From Escherichia phage ELT1, in the sequence record MZ892903.1: a stretch of DNA of 64,000 bases. One strand, written 5' to 3'. The translations under genes were made by a program, and so were the position numbers. How positions within the stretch are numbered: the stretch's first letter is position 1; each line of letters opens with the position of its first letter. The notes beneath the pieces are model-generated. The model searched no databases. It was not told where the DNA came from and saw only the letters and a list, made by a program, of their open reading frames with translations. This document shows positions 16,787 through 50,266 of this stretch, in pieces.

Positions 16787-17110
16787 TTAGTCTTCTATGA
16801 TATCTCTATCATATCCAAGTGAAATGAGGGTTTCTTTGAAGTGTTTAATGTTCTTTTGTCTGGAATCATTAATGAAAATGACTGGATAACGAATGTTAAG
16901 AGATGTGAATCCGGCGCGTTTAGCAAGAGATACAATCAGTGGACGATCATACTCAATCTTACCATTATTTGTAAGAACTTTATAGAAAGTAAAAGGAGCA
17001 TTGAGCTCCTTTAGAAGTTTTGTAACTGATTGACATCCAGGACAACGACCTACTTCATCTGGAATTCCATAGACTTCAATCTTATTCTTTAAGTTCGAGT
17101 TTTGTTCCAC
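16787..17110 (-). CDS. nrdH: glutaredoxin-like protein NrdH
   Basis: CPGC active site; proposed GTG start at 17110 with AAGGA SD, because the long ORF-track version overlaps the upstream gene. Confidence 0.55.
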   Translation of the reverse strand: MEQNSNLKNKIEVYGIPDEVGRCPGCQSVTKLLKELNAPFTFYKVLTNNGKIEYDRPLIVSLAKRAGFTSLNIRYPVIFINDSRQKNIKHFKETLISLGYDRDIIED

Positions 17111-17393
17111 GAGAAATAATTCCTTGATAAGCCCAGTATGGCGGGTTAACAGAATCCTCACCAGAGTTTTCTTCAGGAAAATAAACCTGGATAACGAAGC
17201 CGGATTCATCAAAGGTAAAATAAACCGTAGGCAGTTCACCTAACAAATCGGCACGAGCGTTGATTTCTTCGAGGTCTTGTTCACGTCCAGCCCAGAAGCT
17301 TGGGTTCAGACTACATTCATAGAAATAATAGTCATTACCGAACATATCAAAACCATTCCAACTCTCTACTACATACCGCTCAAAACTAATCAT
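17082..17393 (-). CDS. hypothetical acidic protein
   Basis: 103 aa ORF. Confidence 0.4.
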   Translation of the reverse strand: MISFERYVVESWNGFDMFGNDYYFYECSLNPSFWAGREQDLEEINARADLLGELPTVYFTFDESGFVIQVYFPEENSGEDSVNPPYWAYQGIISRGTKLELKE

Positions 17394-17395
17394 AA

Positions 17396-17611
17396 TTAAG
17401 CCTTTTTATCAAGAACAGCATTCAGCTTGTTAGTAATTTTATCCAGACGCTCATTGAACTCACTAGAAGATAAACCTTTTTCTGGAGAAATTAAGCTAAT
17501 CACGAAAAATACAACAATAAAAGGAATAAGGAAAATAGCTCCAACTGCCATAAACAGAAAGAATGTTACAGTTGTAAGAAAATCAGCTAAACCTTTACGA
17601 AATTTATACAT
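17396..17611 (-). CDS. small membrane protein
   Basis: 71 aa with central hydrophobic stretch. Confidence 0.4.
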   Translation of the reverse strand: MYKFRKGLADFLTTVTFFLFMAVGAIFLIPFIVVFFVISLISPEKGLSSSEFNERLDKITNKLNAVLDKKA

Positions 17612-17726
17612 ATTTTATCCTTAATTAATTAACCAAGCATTGATAAGTACTAAACTATACTGCGAATAAAATTCTGGACCAAAATGAAAAATCATATCAT
17701 TTATAGTATCAATAATATAATTCAGT

Positions 17727-18197
17727 TTAATCATGTTTCCACACCCCATCGGTATTTGACCAAAGTCGCTGATTATCTGATCCTCGCCACAGCTTTTTGG
17801 TCGGAAGATTTTTCTCATACTTCCCATCAATAATAACATCAACATATTTAAGCATTTCTAGTTGTTTAATATCTTCAAACTTATATCCTGTCCACAACCA
17901 GATATCTTTCTCCGGAAATCTTGCTTTAACCCAAGAAACTAAATTTGAAATCTCTTCTCGGTTCTGTGGATAAAGTGGGTCACCACCGGTTAAGGTAAGG
18001 CCTTGGATATACGATTTGCTTAAATGGGACGCAAGTTCTTTAACGGTATTCATAGTGAATAACTGTCCGTTACGAGCATTCCAAGTACTACGATTATAAC
18101 AACCTTCGCATTTATGCAAACATCCAGTGACGAAGAGAACGACCCTGCATCCAGGACCATTAACAAAGCAGCACGGGTATATTCTATCATAATTCAT
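17727..18197 (-). CDS. nrdG: anaerobic ribonucleotide reductase activating protein (radical SAM)
   Basis: Start at MNYDRIYPCC giving 156 aa; Cys cluster CLHKCEGC. Confidence 0.85.
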   Translation of the reverse strand: MNYDRIYPCCFVNGPGCRVVLFVTGCLHKCEGCYNRSTWNARNGQLFTMNTVKELASHLSKSYIQGLTLTGGDPLYPQNREEISNLVSWVKARFPEKDIWLWTGYKFEDIKQLEMLKYVDVIIDGKYEKNLPTKKLWRGSDNQRLWSNTDGVWKHD

Positions 18198-18819
18198 CTT
18201 TATATTTCCAAGTATATCCCTTATGAATAGATTGAATTCCTTTGCAACATTTATAAACAGCAGAATGAAAAAATCCTGCATTTCTTATTTCAGTTGCTCC
18301 AGTTAGTTCTATTGTATTTCCGTCTGGTGAATAGCCAATAACCGTTTTGGTGTTAAAGCGATTTCTAGAACTATTTTTGATATGCTCTTTATGACTAGTA
18401 GACAAAGTTCTTCCTGTTAGCCCATCAGATATCCTTTTTCCAAAATCATCAGGAAGAGTTACTTTAGACCTAGCTATGCTCATTAGCTTCTTAGTTTTAT
18501 CGCTTCTTTTTGTGCCACGCTGATTTTCAAATTTCTTAGCTTTTGCATACGCGTATTGTGAAGAAGTAACTTTTCTATGCTTACTATTACTCATTATCCA
18601 ATATGCATCATACATCTTTCCACCACATATTTTAGCCAATAAATGGTGAGCAGTATAGTGGGCCTTATAAGTTAAAAATACTAAGTTGTCTAAATCATCT
18701 GAACCACCCATGCTTCTTGGAATTATATGATGAAGTTCATACCCGGCTTTAGTTTGACGGGGCTTAGATGGGTGTTCAGCAGAATTAACTAGATTTGAAT
18801 AGATTCTGTCATAATTCAT
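18187..18819 (-). CDS. HNH homing endonuclease (Mob family, mobC position)
   Basis: 210 aa; HHIIPRSMGG...N...H HNH motif; free-standing between nrdD and nrdG. Confidence 0.75.
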   Translation of the reverse strand: MNYDRIYSNLVNSAEHPSKPRQTKAGYELHHIIPRSMGGSDDLDNLVFLTYKAHYTAHHLLAKICGGKMYDAYWIMSNSKHRKVTSSQYAYAKAKKFENQRGTKRSDKTKKLMSIARSKVTLPDDFGKRISDGLTGRTLSTSHKEHIKNSSRNRFNTKTVIGYSPDGNTIELTGATEIRNAGFFHSAVYKCCKGIQSIHKGYTWKYKDEL

Positions 18820-18831
18820 TGGTGTTTAACC

Positions 18832-20124
18832 CTATGCATGTTTTACTCGTTTTACCATTTCTTTCATTTTACCTAAATTCCATGGGACAACGCTAGGAGT
18901 TCCAAGATATCCGCATGTTCTTCTTATGGTGTTCATCTTTTTAGGATCAGTTTCTCCACAAATAGAACAAACAAATCCGTTTTCAGTAGGAGTCATTTCA
19001 TGGGTACTTCCACATGTAAAACATTTATCTACTGGCATGTTAACACCAAAATAATCTAAATGTTGCGCAGCATAATCCCATACGGCCTCAAGACCTTTTA
19101 AGTTATTTTTCATATCAGGAAGCTCAACATAAGAAATGTGACCACCTGTCGCAATGAAATGATATGGCGCTTCACGAGAAATCTTTTCAAACGGAGTAAT
19201 ATTTTCTTCTACTGAAACATGGAAACTGTTAGTGTACCAGCCTTTATCAGTAACATCTTTTACACTTCCATATTTTTCTGTATCGAGTTTACAGAAGCGA
19301 TAACAAAGGTTTTCAGCAGGAGTCGAATATAAACTAAAAGCAAATCCGGTTCTTTCAGTCCACTGTTTAAGATGGGCATTCATTTTAGTTAAAATTTCTT
19401 GTCCAATATCACGACCGACAAGAATATTCAATTCATGAATACCAATGTATCCTAAAGACACTGAACTTCTACCGTTTTTAAATAACTCAATTATGTCGTC
19501 ATCAGGTTTAAGACGAACCCCGAATGCACCTTCTTGGTAAAGAATAGGAGCAACAGTCGCTTTAACTCCTTTTAAGGAACTAATTCTACACATCAAAGCT
19601 TCAAAACACAAATCCATTCGTTCATTGAATAATTCAACAAATTTCTGTTCATTGAACTGTGTTCCAATATAAGAATCTAATGCGATACGAGGAAGATTCA
19701 GTGTTACAACACCAAGATTATTACGTCCATCAAGAATTTCATTACCAGTCGAATCTTTCCATACACTCAAGAAACTACGGCAACCCATTGGAGAAACAGG
19801 AACAGATGAACCAGTGATAGCTTTATTGTTCTTAGCTGAAATAATATCAGGATACATTCTTTTGCTTGCGCACTCTAGAGCAAGCTGCTTAATATCATAG
19901 TTCGGATCGTCTTTATAAAGATTAACACCTTCTTCAACGAACATAACAAGCTTAGGGAAAATAGGAGTTATCCCATCACGACCAAGACCTTTAATACGAT
20001 TTTTCAGAATTGCTTTCTGAATCATTCGTTCAGTCCAGTCAGTTCCCGTACCAAATGTAATTGTTACAAAAGGCGTTTGTCCATTAGAGCTGAAAAGTGT
20101 ATTTACTTCATCATTATATTCAGC
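18832..20124 (-). CDS. nrdD: anaerobic ribonucleotide reductase NrdD, exon 2 (5' boundary approximate)
   Basis: Glycyl-radical enzyme C-terminal part with Cys-rich tail CFTCGS...CSICG; ORF continues upstream into the intron. Confidence 0.7.
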   Translation of the reverse strand, partial: AEYNDEVNTLFSSNGQTPFVTITFGTGTDWTERMIQKAILKNRIKGLGRDGITPIFPKLVMFVEEGVNLYKDDPNYDIKQLALECASKRMYPDIISAKNNKAITGSSVPVSPMGCRSFLSVWKDSTGNEILDGRNNLGVVTLNLPRIALDSYIGTQFNEQKFVELFNERMDLCFEALMCRISSLKGVKATVAPILYQEGAFGVRLKPDDDIIELFKNGRSSVSLGYIGIHELNILVGRDIGQEILTKMNAHLKQWTERTGFAFSLYSTPAENLCYRFCKLDTEKYGSVKDVTDKGWYTNSFHVSVEENITPFEKISREAPYHFIATGGHISYVELPDMKNNLKGLEAVWDYAAQHLDYFGVNMPVDKCFTCGSTHEMTPTENGFVCSICGETDPKKMNTIRRTCGYLGTPSVVPWNLGKMKEMVKRVKHA

Positions 20125-21165
20125 ATGAGTCGCAAATTCATGCCCGTTTATATGAAACAACAAAATTTGGATAGTCCATAGATATGCAACGTTCTTTTAT
20201 AGTGCTAGGATGAAAATTTAGCGCTTTAGCTGCTTCTATATAAGACGTATACTTAATACCGTCAACAACCACATATTCAGGAACTTTATGAATAGTAGTC
20301 TTAATACTCAAAACAAGAGGATGAGTTTCGACTTCACTTTCAGTGCAATTTAAATATTCCGCTGCTTTTTTAAAACTTCTAAAAGTTTTATTTTTAAGCT
20401 TTATCGATACTTGTTTTTTACTTTTTCGACTATTGACATTATTTTGCACATGTTCCTTAGATCTTCCGTTTTTAGCATAATATTCAGCTACAGAAGATTT
20501 TATATTGTTTTTATGAGATTCGGATAACACTTTACCCTTATGAGCATCTCTTAATTTTTGAATATGTTCTTCAGTATCCGGATGCTTATAAAACTTTTTA
20601 CCGCCTATGGATTTATTTAAACATTTTTTGCTATAAAAATATTTACGTATGACCTCTTCTTCATGTTTTAATGCATCTTTATAACTATCAAATGTTTTTA
20701 AAATTATCCATTTAGTAGGTGTATCAGTTTTTAAGCGTTCATTTATATACTTAGATGACGTTGTGTAAGTTTTCCAGTTTGTGGGCTTGTTTTTAATTGT
20801 TCTAAATTTTTTATAACCGATATAAATGTCGCCATTAGAAAACTTAACTAAGTATGTAAATGCGTCTTTATCTTTTATTTTAGTACAACGTCTTTTTATC
20901 CATTTCATTGTTTCACCTCGTATTCATAAGATAATCTTATTTATACAAGATGACTGCTGCATGTCGCCATGCAGATTAGACTATATCTTCATCTTTCGAT
21001 GCCGGCCGTTTCGAATAGCATTAGCTTCTATTCTACACCGCTACATTCATCACGGTTAGTCGTTAGGCATTTAGTTCAAAAGAACATTTAGCACGGGATT
21101 GTCTACTAGAGAGGTTCCCCGTTTAGACCGGTTTTACATGAGCCTGAATTAAATTAACTCATACG
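20125..21165 (-). mobile_element. group I self-splicing intron in nrdD with embedded homing endonuclease (boundaries approximate)
   Basis: nrdD reading frame interrupted by about 1 kb containing an endonuclease ORF; about 240 nt of structured non-coding sequence between exon 1 and the endonuclease ORF. Confidence 0.6.
20138..20908 (-). CDS. intron-encoded homing endonuclease, I-TevII-like
   Basis: 256 aa basic ORF inside the nrdD intron; GIY-YIG-like N-terminus (DIYIGYKKF). Confidence 0.75.
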   Translation of the reverse strand: MKWIKRRCTKIKDKDAFTYLVKFSNGDIYIGYKKFRTIKNKPTNWKTYTTSSKYINERLKTDTPTKWIILKTFDSYKDALKHEEEVIRKYFYSKKCLNKSIGGKKFYKHPDTEEHIQKLRDAHKGKVLSESHKNNIKSSVAEYYAKNGRSKEHVQNNVNSRKSKKQVSIKLKNKTFRSFKKAAEYLNCTESEVETHPLVLSIKTTIHKVPEYVVVDGIKYTSYIEAAKALNFHPSTIKERCISMDYPNFVVSYKRA

Positions 21166-21694
21166 CCTGGAATGCATCGTATACGTCTTTTTCTGTTTTA
21201 GATTGGGCATAATTCAACGCATCAGCGATTTGCCATTTTTCTGCATCCTCAATATGTTTTGCATAGGTGCGTTTAACATAAGGAGAAAGTACTTTATCTA
21301 CATTCGCAAAAGTCGTTCCGCCATATTGATGGGAAGCAACCTGCGCAGTAATTTGTGCCATAATTGCAGTAGCAACACCGATTGATTTAGGAGTTTCAAT
21401 CTGTGCATTACCAAGCTTAAATCCGTTCTCAAGCATTCCTTTTAAATCTACTAAACAGCAATTAGTAAATGGAAGAGCAGGGGAATAATCAATATCGTGC
21501 ACGTGAATAATTCCGCTTTCATGCGCTTTCATAATAAAAGACGGGACCATATTTTTGGCAATGTGTTTAGACACAATACCGGCCATAAGGTCCCGTTGAG
21601 TTGGAAAAACACGAGAATCTTTATTAGCATTCTCGTTTAAAAGGTCTTTATTAGTTTTATGAATCAATCCTTCAATTTCTTTTTCAATTGTCAT
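21166..21694 (-). CDS. nrdD: anaerobic ribonucleotide reductase NrdD, exon 1 (3' boundary approximate)
   Basis: N-terminal part of class III RNR; ORF terminates inside the intron. Confidence 0.7.
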
Positions 21695-22164
21695 TTTAAA
21701 CTCTTTCTAAGCTGCTTCTTAAATGAAGCTATTAATTGTGTTTTGGTGTCAGATTCATTATATTCAAATCCTCTTTGAAGCATCTCAGCCATCATTTCCT
21801 CTTTTCCTAAACGAGAAAATTCCTTTGATTTATCTCCAACGAAGTTAGGGTGAATATTATTTTGGGTGTAATCGGATTTTAAATAAGTAAGTAAATTTTC
21901 TAACCATTCAAGATAATCAACACCTTGTCCCTTTAAGCCAGAACGATTAAATTTGTGCTTCATTTGACCTTCTGCAGCATTGCAGAGATTACAAAGCAAT
22001 CCACGTATCTTTCCTGCTTTTGGTCCATTTAATTCATGGTCATGGTCGAGGTGATTAGCTTGAACATCAGGATTTAGTTCTCGTTGGCAAATTAAGCATT
22101 TACCGTTTTGTGCATTATAAAATTTTTGTTTTTCTTCTTTGTATAATTTGCCAGTCAATAACAT
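21691..22164 (-). CDS. 49: endonuclease VII (Holliday junction resolvase)
   Basis: 157 aa as in T4 gp49; Zn-binding cysteines and HNH-like core. Confidence 0.9.
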   Translation of the reverse strand: MLLTGKLYKEEKQKFYNAQNGKCLICQRELNPDVQANHLDHDHELNGPKAGKIRGLLCNLCNAAEGQMKHKFNRSGLKGQGVDYLEWLENLLTYLKSDYTQNNIHPNFVGDKSKEFSRLGKEEMMAEMLQRGFEYNESDTKTQLIASFKKQLRKSLK

Positions 22165-22213
22165 AATAAAACCCTTACCTTAAATAGATAAGGGTATTTA
22201 TTATTTTCAAGTA

Positions 22214-22678
22214 TTAAAACGCTCGGTCAGAAAAAGAAATTTGAGTTTCAAGCCATTCAATATATTCTGCCGCGGCTTGCATCAAATTTCCTTCATAACC
22301 ATCGTTATTTTCTTGTGCAGCTAATTTAGCTAATGCATATGAAATGCGTTCACCTTGAAAAGCGGCTTTAGGTTTATGAATAGCTTGATCAACTCGTTCT
22401 ACGACTTCTTCAATTTCGCCATTTTCTACTGATTCAGTATTCCACAAGCACCAATACGTAATTGGCTTATCGTAGATGTTAATAATCTTTCCATCAGAAA
22501 GTTCAATTTCAATAATTCCAGTATCAGGTTCTATATCATCTTCACATTCTTTTGCAAGTTCACGAACTTTAAAGACAGTACCTGCACTAAGTTCCGGCCA
22601 GTAATTACACAGCCCTATATCAGCACGATTAATTCTAAACCACTTATCTACTGTAATCATGTCCCATCTCCATATCAA
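22214..22678 (-). CDS. hypothetical acidic protein (possibly pin)
   Basis: 154 aa ORF in the pin/49.x position; identity not verified. Confidence 0.35.
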   Translation of the reverse strand: MIWRWDMITVDKWFRINRADIGLCNYWPELSAGTVFKVRELAKECEDDIEPDTGIIEIELSDGKIINIYDKPITYWCLWNTESVENGEIEEVVERVDQAIHKPKAAFQGERISYALAKLAAQENNDGYEGNLMQAAAEYIEWLETQISFSDRAF

Positions 22679-49606: not shown

Positions 49607-50266
49607 TTAATTTATTAGACTTCTTAAACGAGCAGAAGTCATAAATGGAAATTTTTCTAAAGTTGGCTTTCGCCAATATCTTGGATGACAAGTTGATTTA
49701 AAATCAAGAACAATTTTCTTTGCTTCATCAATAGTGTTAACTCCAAAGTTATCTAACATTATTTTCTTTTCTTTTTCCCACCGTTTATTAGCTAAAGCAG
49801 ATTGAAGCTTTTTGTTTTTAAATGTGTCATTTTTTCTAGAATGAGTTGTTCCTTGTGTCGGACTCCATCCTCTTCCTAAAATAAATCCCTCAGGAATTAT
49901 ATCTCCATCATGTAATTTTATACATCTTTTACCATTATTATAATATTTTCGTCCAGTTTGTGTATTTGAAATATTATTTGCATGTTTTCTTTTTAACCAA
50001 CCATAAACTTTATTATTTCTCCTAACATATTTAGTTGAAACCGTCATTTTTATGGCTGCATAAGATAATTTTAAAGAATTTGGGTGTATTTTTACTAATA
50101 GCTGATGTGCAACATAATGCTCTTCTGGAGTTAAATCAACCAAGTTAGAAGCATCATTACTACCGCCTAAACATTTCGGAATAATATGATGTCTTTCTTT
50201 ATATCCAGTAAGGGCTCTATTGCGAGCCCTATCAATTAGTGAATTATAAATTTTTTCATAATTCAT
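49607..50266 (-). CDS. HNH homing endonuclease (Mob family) inserted between genes 2 and 3
   Basis: 219 aa from MNYEKIY; [10 protein letters not shown]...N...H motif; paralog of the ORF at 18187-18819; ATGA overlap with gene 2 stop. Confidence 0.7.

Follow-up and report, generated by a model that had tools for sequence, protein, structure and literature searches.

The homing endonuclease MobE of phage T4 nicks the 5′ region of the downstream gene nrdB and drives co-conversion of the flanking sequence (PMC2790892). In some relatives of T4, the place of mobC is taken by segH, a free-standing gene for an enzyme of the GIY-YIG family (Sandegren et al. 2005, cited in PMC2988022). One-sided homing in T4 leads to illegitimate double-strand-break repair with microhomology junctions (Edgell et al. 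2010, PMC2988022; Parker, Belisle and Belfort 1999 as summarized there), and a location at the boundaries of exchanged segments has been described in general for phage nuclease genes (PMC10448857). Here, we describe mobC in a stretch of 64,000 nucleotides (nt) from Escherichia phage ELT1 (MZ892903.1; the whole stretch is termed the window herein), where it lies directly upstream from nrdG and encodes the same first seven residues. That mobC occurs at this site and can be replaced there by segH is established, as is the gene itself, and the locus is no new kind of system. The gene sits exactly at the junction of nrdD and nrdG, and we think it probable that the repeated start, which marks the edges of the insertion, is a coincidence of two family motifs that has been used as microhomology in transfers of mobC.

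The window belongs to a T4-like phage (Tequatrovirus), and over 1.8 kb around mobC its identity is 98.7% with phage 215Ecol030PP and 96% with T4. The HNH open reading frame (ORF) scored 26.6 bits against Pfam PF01844 (HNH; cutoff, 21.4; residues 28 to 50, HHIIPRSMGGSDD...N), and its interior is 99.3 to 99.5% identical at the nucleotide level to the gene annotated as mobC in the T4 records. These matches identify it as T4 mobC, an already known free-standing homing endonuclease gene, which is located between nrdD and nrdG and outside any intron or intein. No transposase domain was found, and the HNH protein is the sole ORF in the 622-nt unit. Full-length mobC was present in 31 of 50,697 phage records, in all of them with at least 98.6% identity, and the nrdD-nrdG region was present in about 836 records; the distribution of mobC among close relatives is sporadic.

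The repeated start and the edges of mobC

Read on the minus strand, mobC starts with ATGAATTATGACAGAATCTAT (18819 to 18799) and nrdG with ATGAATTATGATAGAATATAC (18197 to 18177). The two copies (termed R1 and R2 herein) are 622 nt apart and agree in seven of seven residues (MNYDRIY) and in 18 of 21 nt, and the three differences are all at synonymous third positions. At its other end, mobC encodes a C-terminal KDEL followed by TGA at 18189 to 18187, a stop that falls within nrdG codons 3 and 4. The shared codons and the 3′ overlap had been described in an earlier reading made from the letters of the window alone (the sequence-only reading herein), which had also named the two genes; the minus-strand sequence bears out the former, and the Pfam HNH domain, T4 mobC, and the T4 annotation bear out the latter.

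The same reading had proposed a comparison of nrdD-nrdG regions with and without the mob gene, and in this comparison the insertion boundaries fall at the two repeat copies. Nine mob-less Tequatrovirus loci were compared (JK1, ESh17, and seven IMG/VR contigs), and all nine contained a single copy in the arrangement ...CATAGGGTTAA(A/G)CACCA-ATGAATTATGATAGA(T/A)TTTAT-CC..., with nrdG next. The left flank of this single copy is the sequence found 5′ of mobC in T4 and in the window, and its right flank is nrdG. The layout can be written as U-R-nrdG for the mob-less genomes, with U as the left flank, and as U-R1-M-R2-nrdG for the mobC-carrying (mobC+) genomes, with M as the mobC-specific segment of 601 nt. 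The two repeat copies coincide exactly with the boundaries of the inserted mobC. The stop codon of nrdD overlaps the ATG of the next gene (ATGA), which is mobC in T4-type genomes and nrdG in mob-less phages. Because this overlap moves from nrdG to mobC, mobC assumes the upstream context that nrdG otherwise has, and initiation of nrdG takes place from sequence within the mobC 3′ end. The window has no ATGA overlap at mobC and instead has a 12-nt spacer after the nrdD stop.

An in silico R1×R2 deletion, used as a query for the empty version of the window flank alleles, gave best matches that were all mobC+ and that aligned in two pieces; no natural empty-site form of the window allele combination was found, nor any direct sign of precise repeat-mediated excision. 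A scan of IMG/VR for the right junction between mobC and nrdG gave no match.

Both starts are typical of their protein families. Among 120 NrdG homologues (from Chromobacterium, Chitinibacter, Deefgea, other bacteria, and many phages), MNYDR[I/Y/F]Y is the standard N terminus, and it is also found in phages without mobC; the nrdG start is therefore ancestral and independent of mobC. For the Mob family, an exhaustive HMMER search with MobC gave 12,690 hits (E value of ≤0.001), and the best 150 representatives were used for the following counts; another search for MobC homologues gave only 7 distant hits, and a search for related loci with MobC gave one weak, partial match. Seventy-nine of the 150 representatives start with MNY and 50 with MNY..IY, and 92 fit a looser pattern, ^M[ND]Y..[IVLHM]Y. 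Of the 50 MNY..IY proteins, 43 have R (25 proteins) or K (18 proteins) at position 5, and 1 has D at position 4. Mob relatives with such starts are located 3′ of a DNA polymerase B gene, near RNase H, and near a ClpB-like AAA gene, and further neighborhoods include Phage_stabilise, baseplate genes, and genes 2 and 3, all unrelated to nrdG. The only other MNYDRIY start among the best 150 representatives is that of the Mob-like P0180, located between baseplate genes 5 and 6. MobC (MNYDRIYSNLVNSA) aligns in register from residue 1 with the second HNH paralogue of the window, which starts at 50266. Judged against these representatives, six of the seven start residues of MobC are Mob consensus and Asp-4 alone is unusual. 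We take the shared start to arise mainly from two unrelated families that independently start alike, as MNYx(R/K)IY and MNYDR(I/F/Y)Y. With mobC directly 5′ of nrdG, this coincidence of motifs therefore makes a 21-nt imperfect repeat that brackets a 601-nt segment. The caveat that the match may be a family feature thus holds, and it holds for both families.

As raw DNA, the mobC/nrdG pair is uncommon. Direct 21-mer pairs with at least 18 matches and at most 1 kb apart number 15 in the window, one of which is the mobC/nrdG pair considered here, and about 1.4 would be expected from first-order Markov simulations. Only three ORFs of at least 50 amino acids (aa) in the window start with MNY, namely, mobC, nrdG, and the HNH paralogue at 50266. 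Given the identical peptides, the nucleotide identity of R1 and R2 is not above the codon-bias prediction: 3.4 identical codons are expected among the 6 degenerate ones from window codon usage, and 3 are observed here and 4 in T4. The near-identical DNA, from which the sequence-only reading had argued, is therefore no sign of recent duplication, because codon usage predicts such identity. In each genome compared, R1 and R2 differ at 2 to 3 of 21 positions, all synonymous (ATGAACTACGATCGTATTTAC is an example of a synonymous recoding of R1). R1 is unchanged in the seven Tequatrovirus mobC+ genomes compared and R2 tracks the local nrdG allele, with no co-variation of the two; homogenization of the copies in cis was ruled out on these grounds.

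Junctions in natural transfers

Three of the 31 mobC+ records are from Klebsiella phages (Boboto, Wolf_ER13, and Shark_ER15); the Boboto record is classified as Jiaodavirus, and the flanks of the other two are of the same type. In mob-less Jiaodaviruses, a small ORF rather than the nrdD 3′ end lies 5′ of nrdG, and nrdG starts with ATGAATTTCGACAGAATCTAC (MNFDRIY). In the three mobC+ Klebsiella phages, mobC starts with ATGAATTTCGACAGAATCTAT, which is the resident nrdG start joined to mobC codon 8 and followed by T4 mobC. The first 9 nt of R1 are replaced by the resident nrdG version, ATGAATTTC, and the resident upstream flank, which is unrelated to the Tequatrovirus flank 5′ of the ATG, is kept. 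Because ATGAATTTC is resident and there is no homology further upstream, the comparison places the left crossover inside the repeat, within 11 nt (GACAGAATCTA) common to the T4 R1 and the resident nrdG start, and changes the MobC start to MNFDRIY. In Boboto nrdG, 22 of 23 informative sites are T4-type at nt 8 to 110 and the resident type begins at nt 124; the right junction accordingly lies about 110 to 124 nt into nrdG, by ordinary homologous recombination. The Klebsiella phages combine long homology in nrdG, no homology on the 5′ side, and a microhomology junction, as in one-sided homing. Boboto and Wolf_ER13 are identical in the region, and Shark_ER15 has four more mobC differences and another nrdG 5′ allele; there was at least one acquisition event and possibly two.

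In the window lineage, nrdD over its final ∼90 nt and nrdG over its initial ∼55 nt have the alleles that adjoin segH in phages ECO4 and fPS-2, and the remaining nrdG is T4-type. The nrdD 3′ end matches ECO4/fPS-2 at 39 to 40 positions per 40 columns versus 24 to 26 for T4, HP3, and JK1, and in 30-nt bins of nrdG, the window matches ECO4 at 29, 29, 26, and 22 positions and T4 at 24, 26, 30, and 30. Because segH-type alleles flank mobC while the later part of nrdG is T4-type, these alignments place the right switch, at which the mobC cassette gives way to nrdG of the segH type, between nt 1 and 17 of R2; on the left, the switch is at the shared CATGCATAGG. The segH-type patches in a T4-type region suggest that the two endonuclease genes have successively replaced each other at this site.

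The C terminus encoded by nrdD also differs from that of T4 (...KRVKHA in the window versus ...HRVKHQ) because of the segH-type allele patches that flank mobC, and the nrdD stop no longer overlaps the mobC ATG.

A further mosaic is present within nrdG itself. Nucleotides 121 to 300 of nrdG in mobC+ Tequatroviruses (17897 to 18077 in the window) match the Jiaodavirus allele at 26 to 30 of 30 nt per bin (87 to 100%), with identical protein. Their identity with the alleles that mob-less and segH+ Tequatroviruses carry is only ∼40 to 80%, and nt 301 to 471 of T4-type nrdG are Tequatrovirus-type. The pattern fits an arrival of mobC together with ∼300 nt of foreign nrdG, and mobC is thus located at the edge of an exchanged tract. 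Co-conversion of flanks is seen in the Boboto nrdG mosaic, in the T4-type nrdG mosaic, and in the segH-type patch of the window. The closest MobC homologue (46% identity) is also encoded directly 5′ of nrdG, its C terminus (GYTWRFK) abutting the nrdG ATG, and the starts there are MNYHKIYN (mob) and MNYIRIYN (nrdG), with 15 of 21 nt identical. The association of mob and nrdG is therefore old and the middle codons are free to differ, since this homologue, with starts of its own, also precedes nrdG.

The recombination junction suggested in the sequence-only reading is thus supported on grounds other than DNA identity, namely, the position of the copies at the insertion edges and the crossovers inside the repeat in natural transfers. 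It had also stated that mob-less relatives with a different nrdG start, together with a Mob motif shared independently of neighborhood, would speak against its proposal. The Mob motif is indeed shared regardless of neighborhood, but the nrdG starts of mob-less relatives do not differ.

Explanations for the shared start

If the repeat is a coincidence of family motifs that was later used as microhomology, as we consider probable, the following steps can be envisaged. By analogy with MobE and from the position of the converted tract, MobC would cut or nick mob-less genomes in the 5′ part of their nrdG; the Jiaodavirus mosaics fit a target in this part because the converted tract lies there. The break would then be repaired from a co-infecting mobC+ genome, copying the cassette, and R1 would act as the minimal left homology arm in one-sided repair without upstream homology. 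Asp-4 of MobC may reflect a past conversion to nrdG sequence.

Several points weigh against this reading. A 2010 review (PMC2988022) lists the activity of MobC as ND and its target as unknown, and for this reason homing by MobC is something that we infer; no later report of MobC cleavage or of its target was found in the literature. Boboto and Wolf_ER13 represent a single event and Shark_ER15 has the same left junction, so the evidence for the crossover in R1 possibly comes from one event. The crossover in R2 depends on the flank alleles plus one diagnostic base (nt 12, T versus C). Among Tequatroviruses, upstream homology is present and the repeat is not needed for transfer. A relative of the 46%-identity locus has lost the mob gene, with the last ∼65 nt kept and fused to a small upstream ORF, and the deletion endpoints in this divergent T4-like lineage share GAAAGG and not the MNY repeat, which points to loss of mob by microhomology deletion. 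Finally, shared-start microhomology was not found in the accessible literature, to which Sandegren et al. 2005, a paper that may describe the boundaries, did not belong.

Possible but rather doubtful is the further idea that the first seven codons of mobC are a selected feature, i.e., a built-in copy of the start of the target gene that serves as a portable left homology arm. The cassette would then be able to home wherever the nrdG 5′ end is conserved, irrespective of the upstream sequence and also in phages of another genus, the N terminus would be rewritten at each jump, and this would explain why the lineage has stayed with nrdG.

We regard it as unlikely that the match is pure coincidence throughout, with mobC placed before the nrdG ATG, family motifs on both sides, and a repeat that was never used in recombination. 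This would agree with the family-wide occurrence of both motifs, with a DNA identity equal to the codon-bias expectation, with the absence of co-variation of R1 and R2 between genomes, and with the MNYDRIY start of P0180, an unrelated Mob-like gene between baseplate genes. However, it is already contradicted by the Klebsiella mobC start, where a resident ATGAATTTC without upstream homology puts the junction within the repeat, and it also conflicts with the right switch inside R2 in the window lineage.

That the nrdG start was truly captured or duplicated is disfavored and, in our estimate, improbable. A 5′-truncated HNH gene would have landed after nrdG codon 7 and captured the start, a second start would have been regenerated on the 3′ side, and residues 1 to 7 of MobC would be non-native. 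Formally, U-R1-M-R2-nrdG versus U-R-nrdG is the layout of a duplication, Asp-4 is rare in the Mob family (1/50), and Boboto shows that nrdG sequence can replace the N-terminal codons of mobC. Six of the seven residues are nevertheless Mob consensus, in register with the paralogues from residue 1, and R1 and R2 differ at two to three synonymous sites everywhere, although mobC is at least 98.6% conserved. R1 and R2 are also not the identical repeats of a target-site duplication, since they differ and R1 is the Mob consensus start. Moreover, where the closest orthologue adjoins another nrdG, the two starts have stayed distinct (MNYHKIY versus MNYIRIY), and the Mob insertion at genes 2 and 3 is without such a duplication. 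To our knowledge, HNH homing endonucleases do not make target-site duplications.

Selection for matched, coupled translation of both genes, which would have kept the shared start and its upstream context, seems very improbable. T4-type mobC does have its ATG in the ATGA overlap with the end of nrdD, the mobC stop falls within nrdG, and a GYTW(K/R)(Y/F)K C terminus abutting the nrdG ATG is kept in the 46%-identical orthologue. On the other hand, the nrdD stop of the window lies 12 nt from the mobC ATG without overlap, the motif is found in Mob genes of many other contexts, and no notable RNA structure was found at either start, with folding of 101 nt around each no better than that of shuffled sequences (z scores of +1.1 and +0.9). 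We give hardly any credence to target-site mimicry or immunity, with R1 copying the MobC recognition sequence as a decoy or self mark, for which nothing beyond the similarity itself speaks, and against which stands the R2-nrdG junction, intact in mobC+ genomes, where the start copy removes no site that reaches into nrdG.

Features of the locus and comparison with known systems

The features of the locus are listed in Table 1. Along the minus strand, nrdD exon 1 is followed by an inserted GIY-YIG ORF, the remainder of nrdD (end, 18832), the HNH ORF, and nrdG.

Table 1. Coordinates of mobC, its repeats and flanks, and the second Mob-type gene of the window
Feature	Coordinates	Strand	Basis
mobC, free-standing HNH homing endonuclease gene, 210 aa	18187..18819	-	ORF, Pfam HNH, T4 match
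R1, mobC codons 1 to 7 (ATGAATTATGACAGAATCTAT, MNYDRIY), left copy of the 21-nt imperfect direct repeat	18799..18819	-	
mobC-specific segment, 601 nt, between R1 and R2; absent in mob-less relatives	18198..18798	-	junctions of JK1, ESh17, and 7 IMG/VR contigs
R2, nrdG codons 1 to 7 (ATGAATTATGATAGAATATAC, MNYDRIY), right copy of the repeat	18177..18197	-	
mobC/nrdG overlap, 11 nt; final three mobC codons and TGA from the nrdG start, in another frame	18187..18197	-	
nrdG, anaerobic ribonucleotide reductase activase, 156 aa	17727..18197	-	Pfam Fer4_12 (2e-50), Radical_SAM, T4 annotation
12-nt spacer (GGTTAAACACCA) from nrdD stop to mobC ATG; identical sequence 5′ of nrdG ATG in mob-less relatives	18820..18831	-	
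nrdD 3′ end, allele adjoining segH in ECO4/fPS-2, not the T4 allele	18832..18915	-	left part of segH-type patch
First ∼55 nt of nrdG, segH-linked allele, then T4-type	18140..18197	-	30-nt bins, junction strings
Second Mob-type HNH gene (MNYEKIY), between genes 2 and 3; comparator outside the element	49607..50266	-	

The nrdD gene (21694 to 18832, minus strand) is split by ∼1 kb containing a 256-aa ORF (20138 to 20908; Pfam SegE_GIY-YIG and NUMOD1), and the position of this insert matches that of the I-TevII-encoding intron in nrdD of T4 (PMC2988022, table). A search of 17000 to 22500 with Rfam at the gathering threshold gave no match, including no group I intron in nrdD. A scan for sigma-70-like promoters, which does not cover T4 middle or late promoters, found 6 sites versus 6.2 expected. 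Within the mobC 3′ end (18260 to 18279, minus strand) lies a terminator-like hairpin (GCAGGATTTTTTCATTCTGC), followed by TGTTTATAAATG; the latter resembles the core of the T4 late promoter, TATAAATA.

The second HNH paralogue starts with ATGAATTATGAAAAAATTTAT (MNYEKIY) at 50266 and encodes 219 aa (50266 to 49607, minus strand). Its neighbors are gene 2 (DNA end protector), with the stop of which its ATG overlaps, and gene 3 (tail completion). It constitutes a 659-nt insertion relative to phage ime09, in which no host gene start is duplicated. It is absent from T4 and is covered in ∼36 of 503 related records.

At the level of the sequence, the locus gives a picture of how a homing endonuclease gene fits harmlessly between two essential genes, taking the start context of one and supplying another, and it shows transfer into another phage genus with only ∼11 nt of homology on one side. 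It also bears on how nuclease genes come to edge exchanged segments in phage genomes (PMC10448857).

Mobile gene mobC of T4 (ORF 55.10) is the same gene as that of the window, in the same position and with the same 11-nt nrdG overlap and R1 sequence; the window differs from T4 in its segH-type flank alleles and in the nrdD stop, which lies 12 nt upstream and does not overlap. T4 mobE, located between nrdA and nrdB, is like mobC a Mob-family HNH gene in a promoter-less cassette between ribonucleotide reductase genes, but the activity of MobE has been shown experimentally, whereas that of MobC is listed as ND (PMC2988022). We compared mobE by description only, and its descriptions in PMC2988022 and PMC2790892 contain no duplicated downstream start. 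The GIY-YIG gene of ECO4 and fPS-2 occupies the same gap between nrdD and nrdG as mobC, in a position that matches segH, and is inserted after CATAGG. Its first codons (ATGCATAGG) are resident sequence of mob-less phages in the ECO4 annotation but not in that of fPS-2. In contrast to mobC, segH belongs to another nuclease family, its insertion replaces 11 nt (GTTAAACACCA), and there is no copy of the nrdG start at its 5′ end.

The mobC acquisitions of the Klebsiella phages resemble one-sided homing, with nrdG homology on one side, none on the other, and an 11-nt junction. The published cases of one-sided homing come from engineered crosses with the td intron, whereas the Klebsiella case is natural, concerns a free-standing gene, crosses a genus boundary, and draws its microhomology from the start of the endonuclease gene itself.

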